DNA of 64,000 nucleotides from Candidatus Nomurabacteria bacterium (GCA_031425235.1 JANPIZ010000008.1:91377-155376); one strand, 5' to 3'. Counted from the stretch's first letter, positions 6,370 to 49,593 are shown. Notes: generated from the sequence alone by a model not told the origin. A program made the numbers and translations.

Positions 6370-8076
6370 ATGAAACAAGAAAGTGAAACAAAATCGTGCC
6401 AGAATTGCAAACAAGACTTTACTATCGAGCCGGACGATTTTGGATTTTATGAAAAAATAAAAGTACCTCTGCCAACTTTTTGCTCAGAATGCCGCAGGCA
6501 AAGAAGGCTTGCATGGAAGAATACATACAACTTATACAACAATTCTTGTAGTCTTTGTGGTAAAAACATTATTTCAATATATTCCCCTGATTCCTCTTTA
6601 ATTATTTACTGTGTTAGCTGTTTTTGGAGTGATAAATGGGATGCATATCAATACGGGCAAGATTTTGACCCTAATAGGTCTTTTTTTGAACAGTATATAG
6701 ATCTTAATAAAAAGGTACCAAAAATAGCTTTAATGAATGATGATGGTATTGCAAGTGTAAATAGTGCTTATTGTCACGATGTTGCTTTTTCGAAAAATTG
6801 CTACATGGTATTTATTTCCTGGAAACTTGAAAATGTGATGTATTCAGGAATGTTAAACAAGGGTCGCGAAATATGCGATTGCCTTTGCATGCAAGATTTT
6901 TGTGAGTATATGTACGAGTCAATGTTTGTAGATGAATGTTATAAATGCAGATATGTGACGTATGGTAGCATGCTACAAAATTGCGATTTTTGTTATGATT
7001 GTCGTGAGTGCAGTGATTGCTTTATGAGCTTTGGCTTGCGTAATAAAAAATATTTTTATAAGAACAAACAGTATTCCAAAGAAGAATACGAAAAAATTCT
7101 TAAATCTTATCAATTGCATACACGAACGGGTTGGGAAAGAGCCAAAAATGAATATAAAGAATTTATAATAACTTATCCTCGTCGTTTTGCTATGATAAGG
7201 AATTCAGTTAACTGTACGGGAGATGACCTTATAAGATGTAAAAACACGAGAGATTCCTTTTTTGCTCCCTTTAGTGAAGACTCTCGCTTTGTTGCAGGAG
7301 GGGTTAATTTTAAGAATTGTTATGATTTGTCTGGTGGAGGGGAAGTAGAGTATAGTTATGAATCTATCACGCCCGATCAATCATATAATAATTTTTTTAG
7401 TATCTATTCTTGGAAAAATAAAGAAATAGCTTATTGTGATAATTGTCATTCGTCTAATAACCTTTTTGGTTGTGCAAGCTTGAAAAAAGGTGAATACTCA
7501 ATATTAAATAAGAAATATTCAAAAGAAGATTATTTTAAATTAAAAGAAAAAATAATAATAAAAATGAAACATGATGGGGAATGGGGAGAATTTTTTCCAG
7601 TTCGATATTCATATTTTGGATATAATGAAACTGAAGCTTTTGATATGAATATTTTATCAAAACATGAAGCTGAAAATTTAAACTATAAATGGCGAGATAA
7701 TTTACAAAGAACTATTGGACAAGAAACTATCTCTCAAAAGGAAATACCAGATTCTATTTTTGATACAACTGAGTATATTTTATATGAAATTTTAAAATGT
7801 GAATCTTGCTCTCGAAATTATAAAGTTACGAACGACGAGCTGGTGTTTTACAAAAGAATGAATGTACCTATTCCAAAAATTTGCTTTTTCTGTAGAAATA
7901 AAAATCGCTTAAATACTAGAAATCCGTTTAAGCTTTGGCATCGCTCATGTATGTGTACTGTCAAGAATCACTTTCATGGAGAAAATAATTGTAAAATAGA
8001 ATTTGAAACTTCCTATGCCCCTGATCGGCCGGAGATGGTATATTGTGAAAAATGTTATCAAGCTGAAGTTTACTAG
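6370..8076 (+). CDS. Large cysteine-rich protein, paralogue 1 (unrecognised family; terminal zinc-ribbon-like motifs plus internally duplicated Cys-repeat core)
   Basis: 568 aa. N-terminal CQNCKQDF...FYEKIKVPLPTFCSECRRQRRL...C..C is repeated near the C-terminus (FYKRMNVPIPKICFFCRNKNRL...C.C). N-K-K-Y-S-K-E-E/D-Y occurs twice. The protein aligns end to end at roughly 40% identity with the ORF at 47848-49554. Confidence 0.8.
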   Translation: MKQESETKSCQNCKQDFTIEPDDFGFYEKIKVPLPTFCSECRRQRRLAWKNTYNLYNNSCSLCGKNIISIYSPDSSLIIYCVSCFWSDKWDAYQYGQDFDPNRSFFEQYIDLNKKVPKIALMNDDGIASVNSAYCHDVAFSKNCYMVFISWKLENVMYSGMLNKGREICDCLCMQDFCEYMYESMFVDECYKCRYVTYGSMLQNCDFCYDCRECSDCFMSFGLRNKKYFYKNKQYSKEEYEKILKSYQLHTRTGWERAKNEYKEFIITYPRRFAMIRNSVNCTGDDLIRCKNTRDSFFAPFSEDSRFVAGGVNFKNCYDLSGGGEVEYSYESITPDQSYNNFFSIYSWKNKEIAYCDNCHSSNNLFGCASLKKGEYSILNKKYSKEDYFKLKEKIIIKMKHDGEWGEFFPVRYSYFGYNETEAFDMNILSKHEAENLNYKWRDNLQRTIGQETISQKEIPDSIFDTTEYILYEILKCESCSRNYKVTNDELVFYKRMNVPIPKICFFCRNKNRLNTRNPFKLWHRSCMCTVKNHFHGENNCKIEFETSYAPDRPEMVYCEKCYQAEVY

Positions 8077-10667: not shown

Positions 10668-10676
10668 TAAAAATAT

Positions 10677-10745
10677 TTGTCCCGTACTAAATTTTTGATT
10701 ACGGGGTATAATGATAAATATTAATATTTAAAATTTTAGTACTGG
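10677..10745 (+). repeat. Copy 2 of the ~70-bp TIR-bearing upstream cassette; abuts the protease start codon
   Basis: ttgtcccgtactaaatttttgattacgggg...aaaattttagtactgg followed directly by the ATG at 10747. Confidence 0.75.
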
Positions 10746-10746
10746 C

Positions 10747-11649
10747 ATGAAGGAAAAAATTCACAAACATATGTATAAGATATTTCTAGGAGTGCTCGCA
10801 CTCGCGGTAATTTTTTCTATTATATATACTGGCGTTCATTATTTTAATGTGTATAAACAACAACAGGCTGAAGCATTAGCAGTACAGAGCAAAGAGCAAT
10901 CTGAGATCCAAAGCGAAGCAGCTCTTAAAGATAAAGCTCGCGATGAGGAGATAGCTTTATTAAAGCAACAGCTTACCGAACTACAAAACAAACCTATTGA
11001 AACAAAAACAATAAACAATACCGTTCAAGTTGAGGCCAAAGATCCCGTAGCGAATATTGTTAAAAAATGGAGCCCTCGAGTAGCTCATATGGAATGCCAT
11101 TGGTTTGATACAAATGATAAGTTGTATGCAAAAGGTTCAGGTTCGGCAACACTTGTTAATTTTTATGGTTTGGGGATGCGAGCTGTTACGAATAAACATT
11201 TGATGGTATATAAAAGTTATCTCCCTAAAAGTTGTGATGTCGAACTTACCTCTGGCGCTACATATACAATACCTATAACGAAAGATAATGTAAGTATTGG
11301 CGAAAATGAAGACTGGGCATATGTGACCTTGCCGAAAGATGGTGTGCTGTCGTCGATAACTGCAAAAGATGTGCGTGCTTGTAAAAATGTTGAAGTAGGA
11401 GACAAAGTACTCATCTTAGGGTATCCCAAAATTGGCTCAAAAATAGGTCTTACTGTAACCGAAGGCATTGTTTCTGGAAATGATAAAAATTATTATATTA
11501 CGTCTGCCAAAATTGACAAAGGTAACTCGGGCGGCGCGGCTATTTTAGTGGAAGATGATTGCTACCTTGGTATTCCGTCAGCATCGGTTGTCGGACAAAT
11601 AGAAAGCCTCGGGCGAATACTTAAATCAAGCTTTGTAATAGGTGGATAG
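10747..11649 (+). CDS. membrane-anchored trypsin-like (S1) serine protease
   Basis: N-terminal TM helix. Catalytic His (TNKH), Asp and Ser (GNSGG) are in canonical order. Confidence 0.75.
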   Translation: MKEKIHKHMYKIFLGVLALAVIFSIIYTGVHYFNVYKQQQAEALAVQSKEQSEIQSEAALKDKARDEEIALLKQQLTELQNKPIETKTINNTVQVEAKDPVANIVKKWSPRVAHMECHWFDTNDKLYAKGSGSATLVNFYGLGMRAVTNKHLMVYKSYLPKSCDVELTSGATYTIPITKDNVSIGENEDWAYVTLPKDGVLSSITAKDVRACKNVEVGDKVLILGYPKIGSKIGLTVTEGIVSGNDKNYYITSAKIDKGNSGGAAILVEDDCYLGIPSASVVGQIESLGRILKSSFVIGG

Positions 11650-11667
11650 TCAAAATTTGTGACCCTA
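11647..11667 (+). repeat. 21-bp direct repeat (copy 1), identical to the tRNA-Glu 3' end plus flank
   Basis: tagtcaaaatttgtgacccta is identical to 12259-12279. Confidence 0.8.
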
Positions 11668-11780
11668 ATTATACGGAATTGGAACCAGGTATTTAAACAG
11701 ATAAAGTTTTTTCGTATATATAAACAAGAAAGTCGCCTCGAAAGACGAACTTTCTTGGCGACGAGAGACAAAGAATAATT

Positions 11781-12167
11781 TTATTCACATAACTTTTTAA
11801 AATTTTCCTTGTCTGATAATAGTTGAATACTGATTTTGTTTAATCTTTCACGGAGACTACTGTTCCACCAGCTGTTTCCGTCAAGTTCACTTTTCCAGCT
11901 TAGTAAGAACGACTCAGTTCTTTTGAATGCTAATTTTTTTAAAGCGAGATCATCTATTTCACTACAAAGATCCAGAAAAGCATTTTTTTCAAGATTGAAA
12001 TTTTCAAGTAAATTTTCAACTCTACTTAAAACAACTTTTGCAGAAAATGCACTACAATAGCTTTTTGTTATTTCGTTTTGAAACGTTTGCAATAACATTG
12101 CAGTGTTTAAAAACGATAAACACAGTATATCCGGGATGCTCAGCTTTGAACTCTTCATTGTTTGCAT
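11781..12167 (-). CDS. hypothetical protein (128 aa) inside the direct-repeat-bounded segment
   Basis: Intact ORF with no recognisable domain. Confidence 0.4.
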   Translation of the reverse strand: MQTMKSSKLSIPDILCLSFLNTAMLLQTFQNEITKSYCSAFSAKVVLSRVENLLENFNLEKNAFLDLCSEIDDLALKKLAFKRTESFLLSWKSELDGNSWWNSSLRERLNKISIQLLSDKENFKKLCE

Positions 12168-12258
12168 TATTTTTCTCCTTATCAGATTAATTTATTTAAA
12201 AAACAAAAAACAACCGACATGGTTGCAACTGTTTTGACAATACCACTTAAAATTATTT

Positions 12259-12279
12259 TAGTCAAAATTTGTGACCCTA
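12259..12279 (+). repeat. 21-bp direct repeat (copy 2), overlapping the 3' acceptor end of tRNA-Glu
   Basis: The last 7 nt (gacccta) are the tRNA acceptor 3' strand. Confidence 0.8.
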
Positions 12280-12343
12280 CAGGGAATCGAACCCTGATTA
12301 CCGCCTTGAGAAGGCGATGTCCTAACCGTTAGACGATAGGGCC
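12272..12343 (-). tRNA. tRNA-Glu (anticodon CUC)
   Basis: 72-nt cloverleaf folded by hand. Acceptor GGCCCTA/TAGGGTC (one G-U pair), anticodon loop ttCTCaa, T-loop TTCGATT. No CCA is encoded. Confidence 0.8.
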
Positions 12344-12413: not shown

Positions 12414-12810
12414 CTATGTAGATGACGGTGTAGTTGTTTGTGTGATGTTTTTTGTAGCTATTACGATGCCCCAGAAGCACGCGTCGGCAACAAGACCACC
12501 CATTATTCCTCCGGCTGTAACCCCAAAGAAATTTATAAAAATAAATATGAACAGTGGTCGGAGCAAAAAGCTATCTAAAACTTCAGCTCCAAAAAATTCT
12601 CTAATTACTTTACCTATCGAGCTAAAGTAACCCCCTGTTGGCAATTTTCTTTTCAAAAATTGTAGCGACGATCCAACAGGGAAGAATGTCAGCTGCAATA
12701 AATATTACAATCGCAGTATTTTTATCGACTGCAATTACACCGAGCAAGATTGCAATTGTGATGCTTACTAGGTGTGAAATCAACTCGTTAGCTAAAATAT
12801 TATTTAACAT
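12414..12810 (-). pseudogene. Possible frameshifted small membrane protein (two overlapping ORFs, 62 aa and 94 aa; the downstream part resembles the GlsB/YeaQ/YmgE transglycosylase-associated family)
   Basis: The ORFs at 12622-12810 and 12414-12698 overlap at a G5 run (aacagggggttac) where a +1 shift joins them. Gly-rich TM segments FFGVTAGGIMGGLVADACFWGIVIA. Confidence 0.3.
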
Positions 12811-12934
12811 ATTTCAACCTCCTTTTCCTTATTAATTTTACCACAAACTCAAAAGGAATAGTTTTCAAAGGATAGTTGAAAAAAGCCTTTTAATATTTAA
12901 TATTTTGAGCCTCAGGTTTCCCGTGACGACGTGA

Positions 12935-13021
12935 TTGACAAATCAGTGTTTTTGTGATATACTATAAGAGTATGACTGGATTTAATTTTTTAATTCCAGA
13001 TCTCTTCGTTGAAAATAAAAT
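12935..13021 (+). promoter_or_regulatory. Promoter (TTGACA-N17-TATACT) plus conserved 5' leader, copy 1
   Basis: 100% identical over ~75 nt to 32085-32160. Contains the ctgga...tccag hairpin. Confidence 0.65.
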
Positions 13022-13024
13022 AAT

Positions 13025-13828
13025 ATGAAAATTTTGCAAAACAAAAAAGTCCGCTTTGCGGCAATTTTATTGGTTGCGTTGTTGGCAGCGTTGTCAACTC
13101 TTAATGCACAACCTGCGGAAGCAGTCACAGCCGAATTCGGCAACTACTTTGAAAGTGTTAAAAAGCTTAACCCCACGGTTAAGAATTTTCACACAATGAA
13201 CGTCGGCGAGGTCTATGGTTTGCCGGACGGCAAAACTGACCACCTCGAAGAAGGCGACACCGAAGGAATTTGGGGTCGCGAGCTGAGAAAATGGAATCAA
13301 CTTCGTTTGGATCCGGTGACCTCAGGTCAACCGTATGTAAACGGCGGAATTAGTCCCGATAACCCGGAACAGCTTGAACGTCAATTTGACAATCAAGCGC
13401 GATTTATGTCTGGGGGTCGTCAGTTTCCTGAACGCATCAGTCCCATTCAAAAAGGGAAAATTTTCGGCGAAGGACTCGTCGGCTATTTAGACCAAGGTTT
13501 TCAACCTCGTAAAATTGATGAGCCGGGCGTACCGGCATATCAGGCGACCTACAGATTCGCCAACGGGGAAGAAATTACCCTTCAATCTTTGATGGGTTGC
13601 ATGAACCCGATCGAAGAAGGTATTGGTCAAACGCGTAAAGGTTACACTTTCGTGCCGGACGGACAAAATCCGGATGTTGTTCCGCTCACGGTAGCGGACA
13701 ATAACGACAAGGGTAAAGACAAGGATTTCAATGGGAATTATATTCTCGGAGGATTTTTGTTTGCTTGTTTATTCGTTCGCCAACCCCCGTCGAAAGACCG
13801 GAAAAAATTACTATTTCTTTTGGTGTAG
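13025..13828 (+). CDS. secreted hypothetical protein (signal peptide), anomalously GC-rich
   Basis: N-terminus KKVRFAAILLVALLAALSTLNAQPAEA. Body is visibly GC-richer than surrounding genes. A possible C-terminal extension by frameshift is described in the findings. Confidence 0.6.
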   Translation: MKILQNKKVRFAAILLVALLAALSTLNAQPAEAVTAEFGNYFESVKKLNPTVKNFHTMNVGEVYGLPDGKTDHLEEGDTEGIWGRELRKWNQLRLDPVTSGQPYVNGGISPDNPEQLERQFDNQARFMSGGRQFPERISPIQKGKIFGEGLVGYLDQGFQPRKIDEPGVPAYQATYRFANGEEITLQSLMGCMNPIEEGIGQTRKGYTFVPDGQNPDVVPLTVADNNDKGKDKDFNGNYILGGFLFACLFVRQPPSKDRKKLLFLLV

Positions 13829-21592: not shown

Positions 21593-21601
21593 AAAATAAT
21601 A

Positions 21602-21673
21602 CTTGTCCCGTACTAAATTTTTGATTACGGGGCATAAAAATAAACATTATTAATTTAAAATTTTAGTACCGGG
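21602..21673 (+). repeat. Copy 3 of the ~70-bp TIR-bearing cassette, inside the operon and abutting the ABC ATPase start codon
   Basis: cttgtcccgtactaaatttttgattacgggg...ttaaaattttagtaccggg followed directly by the ATG at 21674. Confidence 0.75.
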
Positions 21674-32030: not shown

Positions 32031-32072
32031 TACTCCAAACATTTATTTATATATGTAAAATGGTTACAGTGT

Positions 32073-32160
32073 TTGACAAAACACTGTTTTTGTGATATAC
32101 TATAAGAGTATGACTGGATTTAATTTTTTAATTCCAGATCTCTTCGTTGAAAATAAAATT
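32073..32160 (+). promoter_or_regulatory. Promoter (TTGACA-N17-TATACT) plus conserved 5' leader, copy 2
   Basis: Identical to 12947-13021. Confidence 0.65.
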
Positions 32161-32649
32161 ATGAAAAATAAAAAAGTGAGCCTGCTTCGAACGGCACTTT
32201 TTACGTTTTTGTTCCTGGTTACGTTATTGGGGTCAATAACAAAAACGTCGGCACAAGTAACCTCAACTGCTACCTATAAAGTTGAGATACAAAAATTTAC
32301 TGTCGGAAGCTTATTCCCGAAAGCGCTCATCACGTTTTCGGAAAAAATTGCAGATCGGGAGGAATATTTTCGGTCTACAACAGCGAGTTTCGCTATAAAG
32401 TCCAAAGACGCTTCGCCTTTAATGGCGAAGTTGCAACAACAGGCGGTCGAAACCCCGTCACAAGGGATTTTGAACAAATTTTCCTTTTATATCAAAGATG
32501 ATGTAATGGAAATCCATTTTATTTTGAGAAATGAATTCACTGATTGTGAATTCATCGAAAAAATCGAAAAAATCATCGAAACGATAAAAGAAGAAAAATT
32601 TAAAAATAAAGTTCTGAAAAGAACATCGCTGACGTTCACGCAAAAATAA
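32161..32649 (+). CDS. secreted hypothetical protein (signal peptide homologous to that of the 13025 gene)
   Basis: MKNKKVSLLRTALFTFLFLVTLLGSITKTSAQV. The track ORF starts upstream at 32092, but the leader is shared, so ATG 32161 is preferred. Confidence 0.55.
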   Translation: MKNKKVSLLRTALFTFLFLVTLLGSITKTSAQVTSTATYKVEIQKFTVGSLFPKALITFSEKIADREEYFRSTTASFAIKSKDASPLMAKLQQQAVETPSQGILNKFSFYIKDDVMEIHFILRNEFTDCEFIEKIEKIIETIKEEKFKNKVLKRTSLTFTQK

Positions 32650-47847: not shown

Positions 47848-49554
47848 ATGACAAGTGAAACAAAAAATTGTCAAAATTGTAAAACAGATTTTGTAATAGA
47901 ATCTGGAGACTTTAACTTTTATGAAAAAATAAAAGTTCCACCGCCGACCTTTTGTCCGAACTGTAGACTTACGCGTAGATTTCTCCATTCAAATGAAATG
48001 GTGTTATACAAACGTAAATGCGACCTGACTCAAAAAGATATTTTTAGCATGTATCCACCTAAAACACTTTTTCCTGTCTATGAGACATCGGAGTGGTATT
48101 CTGACAAATGGGATGCATATGAATATGGGATGGATTTCGATGAGACCAGACCCTTTTTAGAGCAATTTTTAGAGCTCCAAAATAAAGTACCGCGTATGGC
48201 TCTGACACAACAAGGTCAAACAATTAATAGTGCGTATACTCATAGAGTATCTTATCCAAAAAACTCATACATGGCTTTTCGAGCTTCTTATCCAGAGGAT
48301 TGTTTGTATGTGTATAACGCCAAGTACACTCGAAATTGCGCTGACTCAATATGGATTTTTGACTCAGATCTTTGTTATGAATGTATAAATGTAGAAAATT
48401 GTTACAACTTAAAATATAGTCAAGAATGCAAAGATTCCCGTGATTCCAGCTTTTTATACAGTTGTAAAAACACCTCAAATTCAACTTTATGTGTTAATTT
48501 AGTCAACGCAGAGTGCTGTATTTGGAATAAAAAATATACAAAAGAAGAGTACGTCAAAAAATTAGCAAACATGGGACTCAATAAATTTTCTAACGTTGAG
48601 AAGCTAAAGAAAGAGTTTGAAGAGTTTAGAAAGAAATTTCCACAAAGAGCTGTGGCTTCATTAAAATCTGAGCAAGTGTCTGGTAACTGGTTTTCGGGTT
48701 GCAAAAATGTTCATGAATCATTTGATTGCGTCAATGTAAAAGATGGCAAATATTTATTCATGGTTTTCAATGCCGAAGATTGTATGGATTTTTTCGAATG
48801 GGGCAACAAAGCCGAGCAAATCTATGAGACAACTAATGCTGGTCTCAATGTTGCCAGATTATACTTTTGCTTTCAGTGTTGGATGGGAGCAACAGATCTG
48901 TATTACTGCAACACATGTCCTGGTGCACGAAACTGCTTTGGTTGCGTGGGTCTAAAGAAAGGCGAATACTCTATTCTAAACAAGAAGTATTCGAAAGAAG
49001 AATATGAAATTTTAAAAGAAAAAATTATTAAGCATATGCAAAAAATGCCTTTTATAAGTAATACTGGTATTGAATATAAATTTGGGGAATTTTTTCCTCC
49101 AGAATTTTCAGATCATGCTTATAATGAAACCATCGCAAATTATTATTTTCCACTTTCACAAGAGGAAGCTTTGTCTCGCGGTTATAAATGGAAAGACAAG
49201 GAAAAAGTAGTCCACCAGACGACAGTCAAAGCTAAGGATCTGCCAGACACAATAGAAGAAGTAACTGACGCCATACTCAATGAAATCATAGAGTGCGGAG
49301 AAAAAGATAATCCAGAATCAGTTGGAGCGTTTCGCATAACTCCAAATGAGCTCAATTTTTATAGGAAAATGAATATTCCACTACCGAGAGTATGCTTTAG
49401 CATCAGACACTTGCGCCGGATGGACAGGAGACCAAAACTAAACATTTTTAAGAGAAAATGTGATAAGTGTAGTGTTGAAGTTGAAACAGTATATACTAAA
49501 GAGCATGCACCGGTATTGTATTGTGAAAAATGTTATCAACAAGAAGTTTACTAA
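47848..49554 (+). CDS. Large cysteine-rich protein, paralogue 2
   Basis: 568 aa with the same architecture as 6370-8076. Identical C-terminus YCEKCYQ.EVY. Conserved LKKGEYSILNKKYSKEEY block. Confidence 0.8.
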   Translation: MTSETKNCQNCKTDFVIESGDFNFYEKIKVPPPTFCPNCRLTRRFLHSNEMVLYKRKCDLTQKDIFSMYPPKTLFPVYETSEWYSDKWDAYEYGMDFDETRPFLEQFLELQNKVPRMALTQQGQTINSAYTHRVSYPKNSYMAFRASYPEDCLYVYNAKYTRNCADSIWIFDSDLCYECINVENCYNLKYSQECKDSRDSSFLYSCKNTSNSTLCVNLVNAECCIWNKKYTKEEYVKKLANMGLNKFSNVEKLKKEFEEFRKKFPQRAVASLKSEQVSGNWFSGCKNVHESFDCVNVKDGKYLFMVFNAEDCMDFFEWGNKAEQIYETTNAGLNVARLYFCFQCWMGATDLYYCNTCPGARNCFGCVGLKKGEYSILNKKYSKEEYEILKEKIIKHMQKMPFISNTGIEYKFGEFFPPEFSDHAYNETIANYYFPLSQEEALSRGYKWKDKEKVVHQTTVKAKDLPDTIEEVTDAILNEIIECGEKDNPESVGAFRITPNELNFYRKMNIPLPRVCFSIRHLRRMDRRPKLNIFKRKCDKCSVEVETVYTKEHAPVLYCEKCYQQEVY

Positions 49555-49593
49555 ACTTAGTAGAGAAGTATCAGCGTACTAGCATGATAGTAT

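Follow-up and report, generated by a model that had tools for sequence, protein, structure and literature searches.

A recombinase-less cassette between direct repeats at a tRNA-Glu gene of Candidatus Nomurabacteria and its probable relation to large serine recombinase elements

A 64,000-nt stretch of a Candidatus Nomurabacteria bacterium genome (GCA_031425235.1, JANPIZ010000008.1:91377-155376), referred to here as the window, contains an intact tRNA-Glu(CTC) gene whose 3' end is repeated about 0.6 kb away, at the other end of a small cassette with a single gene. We interpret the two repeats as the probable junctions of a site-specific insertion with the tRNA gene as its target. Positions are counted from the first letter of the window, and L numbers are our labels for the loci compared with it. 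The tRNA gene lies on the minus strand (12271-12343 by ARAGORN; 12272-12343 by Rfam, 61.8 bits), is 100% identical to tRNA-Glu in L002 and L020, and has the T-loop GGTTCGAT, which serves as the B-type motif in the reading proposed below. Applied with permissive thresholds to the window region and to L055, Rfam found the tRNA alone, the remaining matches being hairpin noise.

The repeat is a 21-mer, TAGTCAAAATTTGTGACCCTA, present exactly at 11647-11667 and 12259-12279 (21/21 identities), with a period of 612 bp and 591 bp of intervening DNA. The initial annotation had reported this arrangement, and both coordinates hold. The copy beside the tRNA (12259-12279) consists of 12 nt of trailer and the last 9 nt of the tRNA gene: 12271-12279 reads GTGACCCTA, and its reverse complement TAGGGTCAC adds the discriminator A and a further base to the 7 nt of the acceptor 3' strand, so that the overlap with the tRNA amounts to 9 nt in all. 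The far copy (11647-11667, read as core plus host-side B' arm) consists of a protease stop codon, a 9-nt spacer and GTGACCCTA, here a copy of the last 9 nt of the tRNA-Glu. The direct repeat spans the tRNA 3' end and restores the gene, a feature also of tyrosine-integrase islands at tRNA genes. Apart from longer promoter/leader copies and paralogous-gene families, it is the sole perfect direct repeat of at least 20 nt in the 64 kb. The initial annotation had also suggested a search for additional copies; none occurs in the window with up to three mismatches allowed (0 expected from 100 shuffles), and the viral, genome and metagenome collections contain no exact match, the source genome itself being likewise unmatched there.

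Between the repeats lie one credible gene and two terminator-like hairpins, in agreement with the earlier description of a segment lacking an integrase. Neither a recombinase (ORF list, that is, the open reading frames of the window) nor a tyrosine integrase (ORF list, Pfam) was found in the cassette, and tblastn with the L055 recombinase described below gave no match in the window. The GC content is approximately 29-31% across the cassette versus 36-42% in the flanks. The only cargo gene, taken from the ORF list, encodes a 128-aa protein (11781-12167, minus strand, same orientation as the tRNA) and is preceded by the ribosome-binding site AAGGAG (12175-12180, minus) 7 nt before its ATG. Directly after the gene, the hairpin scan placed a terminator-like hairpin at 11733-11748 (minus), which by reading is extended by the stem AAGAAAGTCG/CGAACTTTCTT to approximately 11721-11754. 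The second terminator-like hairpin, with its T-run (GCAACCATGTCGGTTGT TTTTTGTTTT; 12210-12226, minus), is located within the cassette 45 nt downstream of the tRNA. Approximately 90 bp separate the tRNA-side repeat from the 128-aa gene and hold no recombinase pseudogene fragment. A consensus promoter scan performed as shuffles did (three sites versus 2.8 expected).

The 128-aa protein belongs to a family of eight to nine proteins with 34-47% identity. It was at one point taken for an orphan, since a word-indexed search returned only the protein itself; an exhaustive profile-free HMMER search then revealed seven homologues at 36-47% identity, and one more was added later. An AlphaFold model built with the family alignment as input is an all-helical bundle with a mean predicted local distance difference test (pLDDT) score of 90. 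The protein matches nothing in Pfam, PADLOC or, where a phage connection had been suggested, PHROG, and no fold in the PDB with E<0.1. An assignment as an IS200/IS605-like HUH/Y1 transposase was rejected, as the family-invariant residues include neither His nor Tyr, the model is a helical bundle and Pfam gives no match. One family member, in L083, does not lie at a tRNA gene. It is bracketed by a 57-nt direct repeat (1610-1666 and 2264-2320, 77% identical) that holds an inverted repeat (GAACATC..CCCA.GTTC) and TTGAC, and that looks like a shared promoter/operator of consecutive small genes.

The host DNA on the far side of the cassette is a Trypsin_2 serine protease gene (10747-11649, plus strand; ORF list; Pfam PF13365, E=6.7e-8), and the far repeat begins with the TAG stop of this gene (11647-11649). 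Orthologues of this protease come after MurF in L002, L003, L004 and L082, and the neighbours MraY, MurF, RmuC, an exonuclease and YqeY represent ordinary chromosome, with the gene order kept in L002, the closest relative. Contigs with protease homologues are labelled as metagenome-assembled genomes of Nomurabacteria, Paceibacterota or 'Saccharibacteria', all within the candidate phyla radiation (CPR)/Patescibacteria. An independent Logan assembly, L001, contains the same left junction and an identical protease gene. The L001 contig ends within the element arm, at the equivalent of window position 11689, directly after ...GAATTGGAACCAG; this end could reflect low coverage, or a branch of the assembly graph at the cassette boundary through strain heterogeneity.

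An empty-type layout is present in L031, a fairly distant relative, in which the protease stop is followed by 5 nt and the 3' end of tRNA-Glu on the minus strand, with no insert. Removal of 11668-12279 from the window in silico yields a sequence collinear with L031. Together, these observations indicate that the empty state exists, and the initial annotation, which had named such a site in related genomes as a way of checking its attL/attR footprint, is borne out in this respect. Other relatives carry different DNA at the same junction: L002, whose protease is 75% identical, has a 616-bp insert with an unrelated 177-aa gene, L009/L018 have a 279-bp insert with a small membrane ORF, and L020 has a 1.1-kb insert between protease and tRNA. 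In addition, tRNA-Glu(CTC) stands inverted beside the protease gene in L003 (8934-9006), L007 (5946-6018) and L081 (approximately 1427-1442, where the tRNA sequence stops after 16 nt near the contig end), with the same neighbours, the protease gene and a membrane gene, on either side. Read from these loci, the tRNA gene together with its promoter appears to be inverted in some lineages.

These varied junctions lend some credit to an explanation without site-specific recombination, in which the locus would be a generic insertion hotspot and the 21-bp duplication would stem from repair, illegitimate recombination or transposon-type target duplication. The inserts of L002, L009 and L020, which are unrelated and have at most 4-5 bp of flanking identity, would fit it, as would the inverted tRNA of L003/L007 and L081. 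The target duplications known for bacterial transposons measure 2-15 bp, which the 21 bp seen here far exceed, and the cassette ends show no terminal inverted repeats: no inverted repeat pairs them as would be typical of a transposon or miniature inverted-repeat transposable element. Such an origin would also leave unexplained the sequence arm next to the far repeat, which recurs at a fixed spacing in recombinase-encoding elements elsewhere. We therefore regard it as highly improbable.

This arm occupies 11668-11706 on the minus strand, reads ...CTTTATCTGTTTAAATACCTGGTTCCAATTCCGTATAAT, with TAGGGTCAC directly after it, and may be understood as a P-type half-site and a conserved block on the element side. 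It contains the motif GGTTCCAA at 11679-11686 (minus), 11 nt from the core, giving the overall form CTGGTTCCAA-N11-TAGGGTCAC. A homologous arrangement occurs in L080, whose protease is 64% identical: TAA, ATAAATTGG and GTGACCCTA take the position of the far repeat and are followed by a homologue of the arm. The L080 stretch homologous to window 11668-11790 aligns with a score of 64, where shuffled sequences reach 44 at most; conservation is strongest in GAATTGGAAYCAGRTATTYAAWCAGATAAAG, and the cargo beyond this block differs. Between the two loci the 12 host-side nucleotides differ while the 9-mer and the arm are kept, which fits a reading of the arm as element DNA and of the 12 nt as host DNA.

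Several other candidates for related arms were considered. The idea that the far arm is a decayed local copy of the tRNA gave a local alignment no better than shuffles and gave way to the view of the arm as a common part of the elements, because the same motif was found with three different tRNAs, as described below. The sequence after the protease in L002 was also tried as an arm homologue, and its alignment is not significant. The arm patterns have no match in the viral_contigs collection, and inspection of the tRNA-side arms by eye for a mirrored motif found no consistent copy (a weak GGTT in L055, none in L048 or the window). Additionally, a far-arm-like block, ATTATACGGGATTGGAATCAGGTTTTCAATCAAATAAAT, lies approximately 290 nt after the protease gene in L004, L005, L006, L008 and L016 (e.g., L004 9170-9210), with no tRNA-end core and no tRNA nearby. 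Three contigs of this type part 1.4 kb further on, into genes for type IV secretion system pilins, a split serine recombinase and an rve-like gene, respectively; L005, in which the split recombinase lies near the block, has no tRNA at its contig end. The block could represent a junction that has eroded, or one made at another target.

A search for the arm among the fetched loci led to L055, which carries GTGACCCTA-N9-AATTGGAACCAG and contains a complete element. Next to its tRNA-Glu(CTC) (498-572), and extending into the tRNA, is an ORF on the opposite strand that encodes a large serine recombinase (LSR) of 504 aa with the domains Resolvase (E=2e-33), Recombinase and Zn_ribbon_recom. The next genes encode a replication initiator (Rep) of the REP_ORF2-G2P/RepSA type and further proteins, including a Trypsin_2 homologue. 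At the far end, approximately 6.5 kb away, lies CTGGTTCCAA-N13-GGGTCAC, the last 7 nt of the tRNA, followed by a strong terminator hairpin. This region of L055 (7125-7181) forms a perfect long hairpin with a stem of about 25 bp, GGGGTCACAAAATGAAAAAGCGCC...GGCGCTTTTTCATTTTGTGACCC, which includes the tRNA-end core; upstream, on the other strand, is a structured stretch that is tRNA-like but unrecognised. A second full element, L048, spans 5.07 kb and consists of a tRNA, a 525-aa LSR, a Rep protein, a winged helix-turn-helix protein, a protease, a 198-aa protein and the far arm, which ends in GTGGTTCCAA-N14-CTCCGCA, again the last 7 nt of its tRNA.

In both full elements the LSR gene adjoins the tRNA. 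Neither contains a tyrosine integrase, a place held by the LSR, and no second recombinase was found among the L048 ORFs of at least 80 aa scanned against Pfam. The 128-aa family is absent from both. Their junctions share 7 bp, and beyond the core the two arms of each element show no relation (13/40 and 15/40 identities). Trypsin_2 proteases occur as cargo in both elements (L055 3502-4413; L048 3582-4577) and are 33-36% identical to the protease of the window. The gene of the latter is chromosomal in the window and its relatives, where it follows MurF and lies directly against the attachment site at tRNA-Glu. This link between the protease and LSR elements may be meaningful, though in part it reflects how the loci were ascertained.

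A second miniature cassette is found in L084, in which a homologue of the 128-aa gene (approximately 35% protein identity to that of the window) lies directly 3' of tRNA-Ala(TGC). A 40-nt direct repeat, 83% identical between copies, begins with the last 6 nt of the tRNA, GTCCAC; after the gene come a hairpin and CCTGGTTCCAA-N14-GTCCAC. The window and L084 thus have the same order (tRNA, repeat, terminator, gene of the same family, hairpin, arm, repeat) and similar repeat periods (612 and 629 bp). The same short core stands at both junctions of each locus: TAGGGTCAC within the 21/21 repeat in the window, GGGTCAC in L055, CTCCGCA in L048 and GTCCAC in L084.

A spacing rule emerged when two distances were measured, from the real T-loop GGTTCGAW to the repeated core and, at the far junction, between GGTTCCAA and the core. 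The gap is 6 nt in the real tRNA and 11 nt in the far arm of the window, 8 and 13 nt in L055, 9 and 14 nt in L048, and 9 and 14 nt in L084, so that the far-arm gap equals the tRNA gap plus 5 bp at all four loci. A blind scan for this signature at all 29 tRNAs in the dataset returned these four and one unrelated fragment in L075. The latter, 87 nt downstream of tRNA-Asn (2698-2770), is a partial duplicate of the 3' part of tRNA-Asn, GGTTCGAATCTTACCACCGGAGCC, with normal T-loop spacing; it is either a tRNA fragment in tandem or what remains of some other type of att site. In serine integrases, the motif of the zinc-ribbon domain lies at half-site positions 16-24 of attP and, 5 bp closer to the centre, at positions 11-19 of attB (Rutherford et al. 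2013, PMC3783163).

This offset bears on the family of the recombinase involved. An island remnant of a tyrosine integrase, with attL/attR cores of the P4 or lambda type and only a coincidental link to serine recombinases, would have the target in its favour: tRNA 3' ends are the textbook site of these enzymes, cores of at least 20 bp are typical, and a 21-bp repeat fits their habit better. Serine-integrase mycobacteriophages, moreover, reportedly do not integrate at tRNA genes, and their reported cores go down to 3 bp (PMC9262239). We nevertheless give this explanation very little credence, because neither the cassette nor either full element has such an integrase, the sole recombinase of the latter being an LSR on the tRNA junction; because the 5-bp offset of the motif is specific to attP versus attB of serine integrases; and because LSR systems with 18-bp flanking repeats are known, such as the staphylococcal cassette chromosome (SCC) at orfX (PMC7029136). 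The implied recombinase family is accordingly read as large serine recombinases rather than the tyrosine integrases usual at tRNA sites.

On this evidence, we consider it likely that the repeats are junctions of a site-specific insertion at the 3' end of tRNA-Glu(CTC), made by a family of elements that use an LSR, and that the cassette is either moved in trans or a reduced derivative of such an element. The attL/attR footprint proposed by the initial annotation is thus strengthened by the empty-type site and by the homology of the far junction to complete elements at tRNA genes. Its choice between a decayed remnant and a tRNA-targeting miniature element, based on the footprint and the missing recombinase, stands in a refined form, with an LSR in place of the tyrosine integrase that is usually assumed.

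The proposed course of events would start from an ancestral state in which the protease stop, a short spacer and the tRNA 3' end followed one another, both genes being convergent. The zinc-ribbon domain of the LSR would recognise GGTTCGAW, the T-loop of the tRNA, in the host DNA and its look-alike GGTTCCAA, 5 bp further out, in the element. Strand exchange would take place at about tRNA positions 69-71 (TAGG|GTCAC), a location that lies inside every observed core and is obtained by applying the attP/attB register of Rutherford et al. (PMC3783163) to the gaps. The incoming DNA would bring a replacement 3' end and leave the tRNA intact. The far junction would then have the structure P-arm/core/B'-arm, and the tRNA-side junction B-arm/core/element. 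Read from the tRNA, the present order of the locus is the core TAGGGTCAC with the 12-nt trailer, the terminator, the 128-aa gene and the hairpin, followed by the arm CTGGTTCCAA-N11, the core and trailer again, and the protease gene. The predicted empty site is GGTGGATAGTCAAAATTTGTGACCCTACAGGGAATCG and the predicted circle junction AAAATTATTTTAGTCAAAATTTGTGACCCTAATTATACGG. Directly observed are the repeat, the layout of the locus, the empty-type site of L031, the homology of the far arm to full LSR elements and the 5-bp spacing rule; the origin of the window junctions from an LSR, the position of the crossover and a remaining ability of the cassette to move are inferred.

As the cassette lacks a recombinase, it would either be a non-autonomous unit that an LSR from another locus moves in trans, or have arisen by reduction of a full element. 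We prefer the former, because the cassettes of the window and L084, which sit at different tRNAs and whose proteins are only about 35% identical, agree in order, size and gene family; because neither full element contains a member of the 128-aa family; and because there is no room for pseudogene debris.

The same facts bear on the possibility that the locus is an immobile scar, in which a full LSR element integrated and an internal deletion then removed the recombinase, Rep and the rest, leaving one cargo gene. A scar would readily account for the lack of a recombinase in cassette and window, and full-length relatives from which it could derive exist in L055 and L048. Erosion and turnover at the site in L002, L009 and L020, and the decay-like L004-type loci, with a far-arm-like block but neither tRNA-end core nor tRNA, are also in keeping with it. 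It is harder to reconcile with the near-equal periods and shared layout of the window and L084, since random deletions would not converge in this way, and the missing pseudogene fragment in the 90 bp between repeat and gene, the absence of the 128-aa family from both full elements and the 21/21 identity of the repeats also speak against it. A scar of this kind is consequently a possibility to be kept in mind, albeit a rather doubtful one.

Several observations weigh against an LSR-mediated insertion as set out above. The identity block in the window, at 21 bp, is three times as long as the 6-7 bp that the full elements share. Its tRNA-side arm matches the host trailer at 12/12 positions and then diverges, and the tRNA-side arm of L084 matches the native downstream flank at 30/40 positions, the tRNA terminator included; such host-like arms on the tRNA side are not predicted by a canonical attP x attB reaction. 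No LSR was detected by tblastn within the window. Local alignment shows no significant similarity between the far arm and the remainder of the tRNA, so that the putative T-loop mimicry comes down to an 8-nt motif and its spacing. The examples number two miniature and two full elements, L055 and L048 entered the dataset through protease homology, and the identity between their two LSRs is only about 30%. Finally, L002, L009 and L020 bear other inserts at the same junction with neither arm nor repeat, and the protease/tRNA junction is a general hotspot that gains DNA by other routes as well.

The tRNA-side junction is close to a wild-type attB, 17 of the 19 half-site positions being kept in the window by our own count, and we hypothesise that it could keep the site open to further integrations. 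A more far-reaching, speculative and rather improbable extension is that the 0.6-kb cassettes are active hitch-hikers of CPR LSR elements, each composed of arm, core and one gene. They would leave a near-intact attB for the helper, permitting tandem accretion, and the 128-aa protein would recruit or redirect the helper in the manner of a directionality factor.

Beyond the cassette, the tRNA gene is neighboured by a small membrane-protein gene (12414-12810, minus strand) that is split by a +1 frame change. The initial annotation had listed this gene, as frameshifted, among the accessory-like features of the flanking region; the split is not decay, as it falls at an invariant motif, AGGGGGTTACTTTAGC, in three diverged genomes: the window (12621-12636), L002 (5420-5435) and L003/L007 (9249-9264 and 6261-6276, respectively). 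The +1 frameshift cassette of prfB consists of a Shine-Dalgarno-like AGGGGG, a 3-nt gap, the slippery CTTT and a stop followed by C (PMC12421855). All of these elements are present in AGGGGGTTACTTTAGC, the only prfB-like frameshift site in the window, and two features differ: the stop is TAG, which is specific to release factor 1 (RF1) and never found in prfB, and the gene does not encode a release factor. The fused 131-aa membrane protein has no Pfam match. The motif AGGGGGTTACTTTAGC may be a programmed frameshift site that senses RF1.

Other repeats occur in the window. A 94-nt repeat with 96% identity (12931-13024 and 32069-32162), comprising TTGACA...TATACT, a hairpin leader and a coding start, precedes the genes of two different secreted proteins (the GC-rich 13025-13828 and 32092-32649), and a similar promoter region stands before the corresponding gene in L002 and L003. 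The sequence TA(C/T)TTGTCCCGTACTAAATTTTTGATTACGG occurs in three copies that are 97-100% identical (401-431, inverted; 10674-10704; 21600-21630). It is promoter/operator-like, with the internal inverted repeat CCCGTA...TACGGG, and one copy lies just upstream of the protease gene. Furthermore, two paralogous genes for 568-aa Cys-rich proteins (6370-8076 and approximately 47850-49555) share several blocks of 70-74% nucleotide identity at a constant offset of 41472, and both upstream regions contain AGTAAAGTAAAAAATGAA together with palindromic ACTTTA/TAAAGT motifs.

Taken together, the loci outline a recognisable CPR family that combines an LSR with a rolling-circle Rep, targets tRNA 3' ends and bears a far arm of the form GGTTCCAA-N11-14-(tRNA end), a sequence rule that can be used to find more members. 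They would also provide a natural four-fold replicate of the 5-bp attP/attB offset, with the universally conserved T-loop of tRNAs as the host motif. LSRs of this type would have predictable, conserved targets, which makes them relevant to the mining of serine integrases for genome engineering. Should the inferences on mobility fail, the locus would be an ordinary integration scar, now correctly assigned.

In terms of known systems, LSR integrative elements and att-bounded cassettes without a recombinase are both already established, and the present locus is not a new category; our literature search found nothing on serine-recombinase integrative elements in CPR/Patescibacteria genomes, whether at tRNA genes or elsewhere. 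Among actinomycete integrative and conjugative elements, those of the pSAM2 type have a rolling-circle RepSA and a tRNA target, and L055 and L048 likewise pair an initiator of the RepSA/REP_ORF2-G2P type with insertion at the 3' end of a tRNA gene. In pSAM2 the recombinase is a tyrosine integrase and the identity segment measures 58 bp, whereas an LSR and a core of 6-9 bp are found here. The cis-mobilizable elements (CIMEs) derived from streptococcal integrative and conjugative elements are att-flanked, lack genes for integration and excision, and depend on the recombinase of a related element. The cassette resembles them as att-flanked DNA with no recombinase of its own; CIMEs differ in their tyrosine integrases and their targets, which are non-tRNA or other sites, and are usually clear deletion derivatives.

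The related full elements agree with LSR elements of the A118/LI, Bxb1 and phiC31 type (PMC3783163) in having a protein with Resolvase, Recombinase and Zn-ribbon domains at the junction, a short core, and an 8-nt motif whose distance from the crossover is 5 bp greater in the element half-site than in the host one. They differ in their target, since insertion is at the T-arm and acceptor end of tRNA genes, reportedly not used by serine-integrase mycobacteriophages (PMC9262239), and in their hosts, which, where named, are CPR/Patescibacteria. The window cassette departs further, with no recombinase, a 21-bp identity block and a tRNA-side arm like the host trailer. The nearest precedent is provided by pseudo-SCC elements and the arginine catabolic mobile element (ACME), recombinase-less modules with 18-bp repeats at the 3' end of orfX/rlmH that are moved by the LSRs CcrAB and CcrC (PMC7029136). 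There, too, a serine system acts on repeats of about 20 bp that include the 3' end of the target and restore the gene, and modules without a recombinase are bounded by the same repeats. Here the target is a tRNA gene instead of rlmH, the cassette measures 0.6 kb with one gene rather than several to tens of kilobases, no tandem array was seen, and tblastn detected no LSR that could act as helper in the 64 kb. The cassette does have the hallmark of trans-mobilised cassettes, being bounded by the att repeats of an element family without encoding a recombinase. SCC shows tandem accretion at one site, and such one-gene cassettes would suggest that SCC-like modular accretion extends beyond staphylococci.

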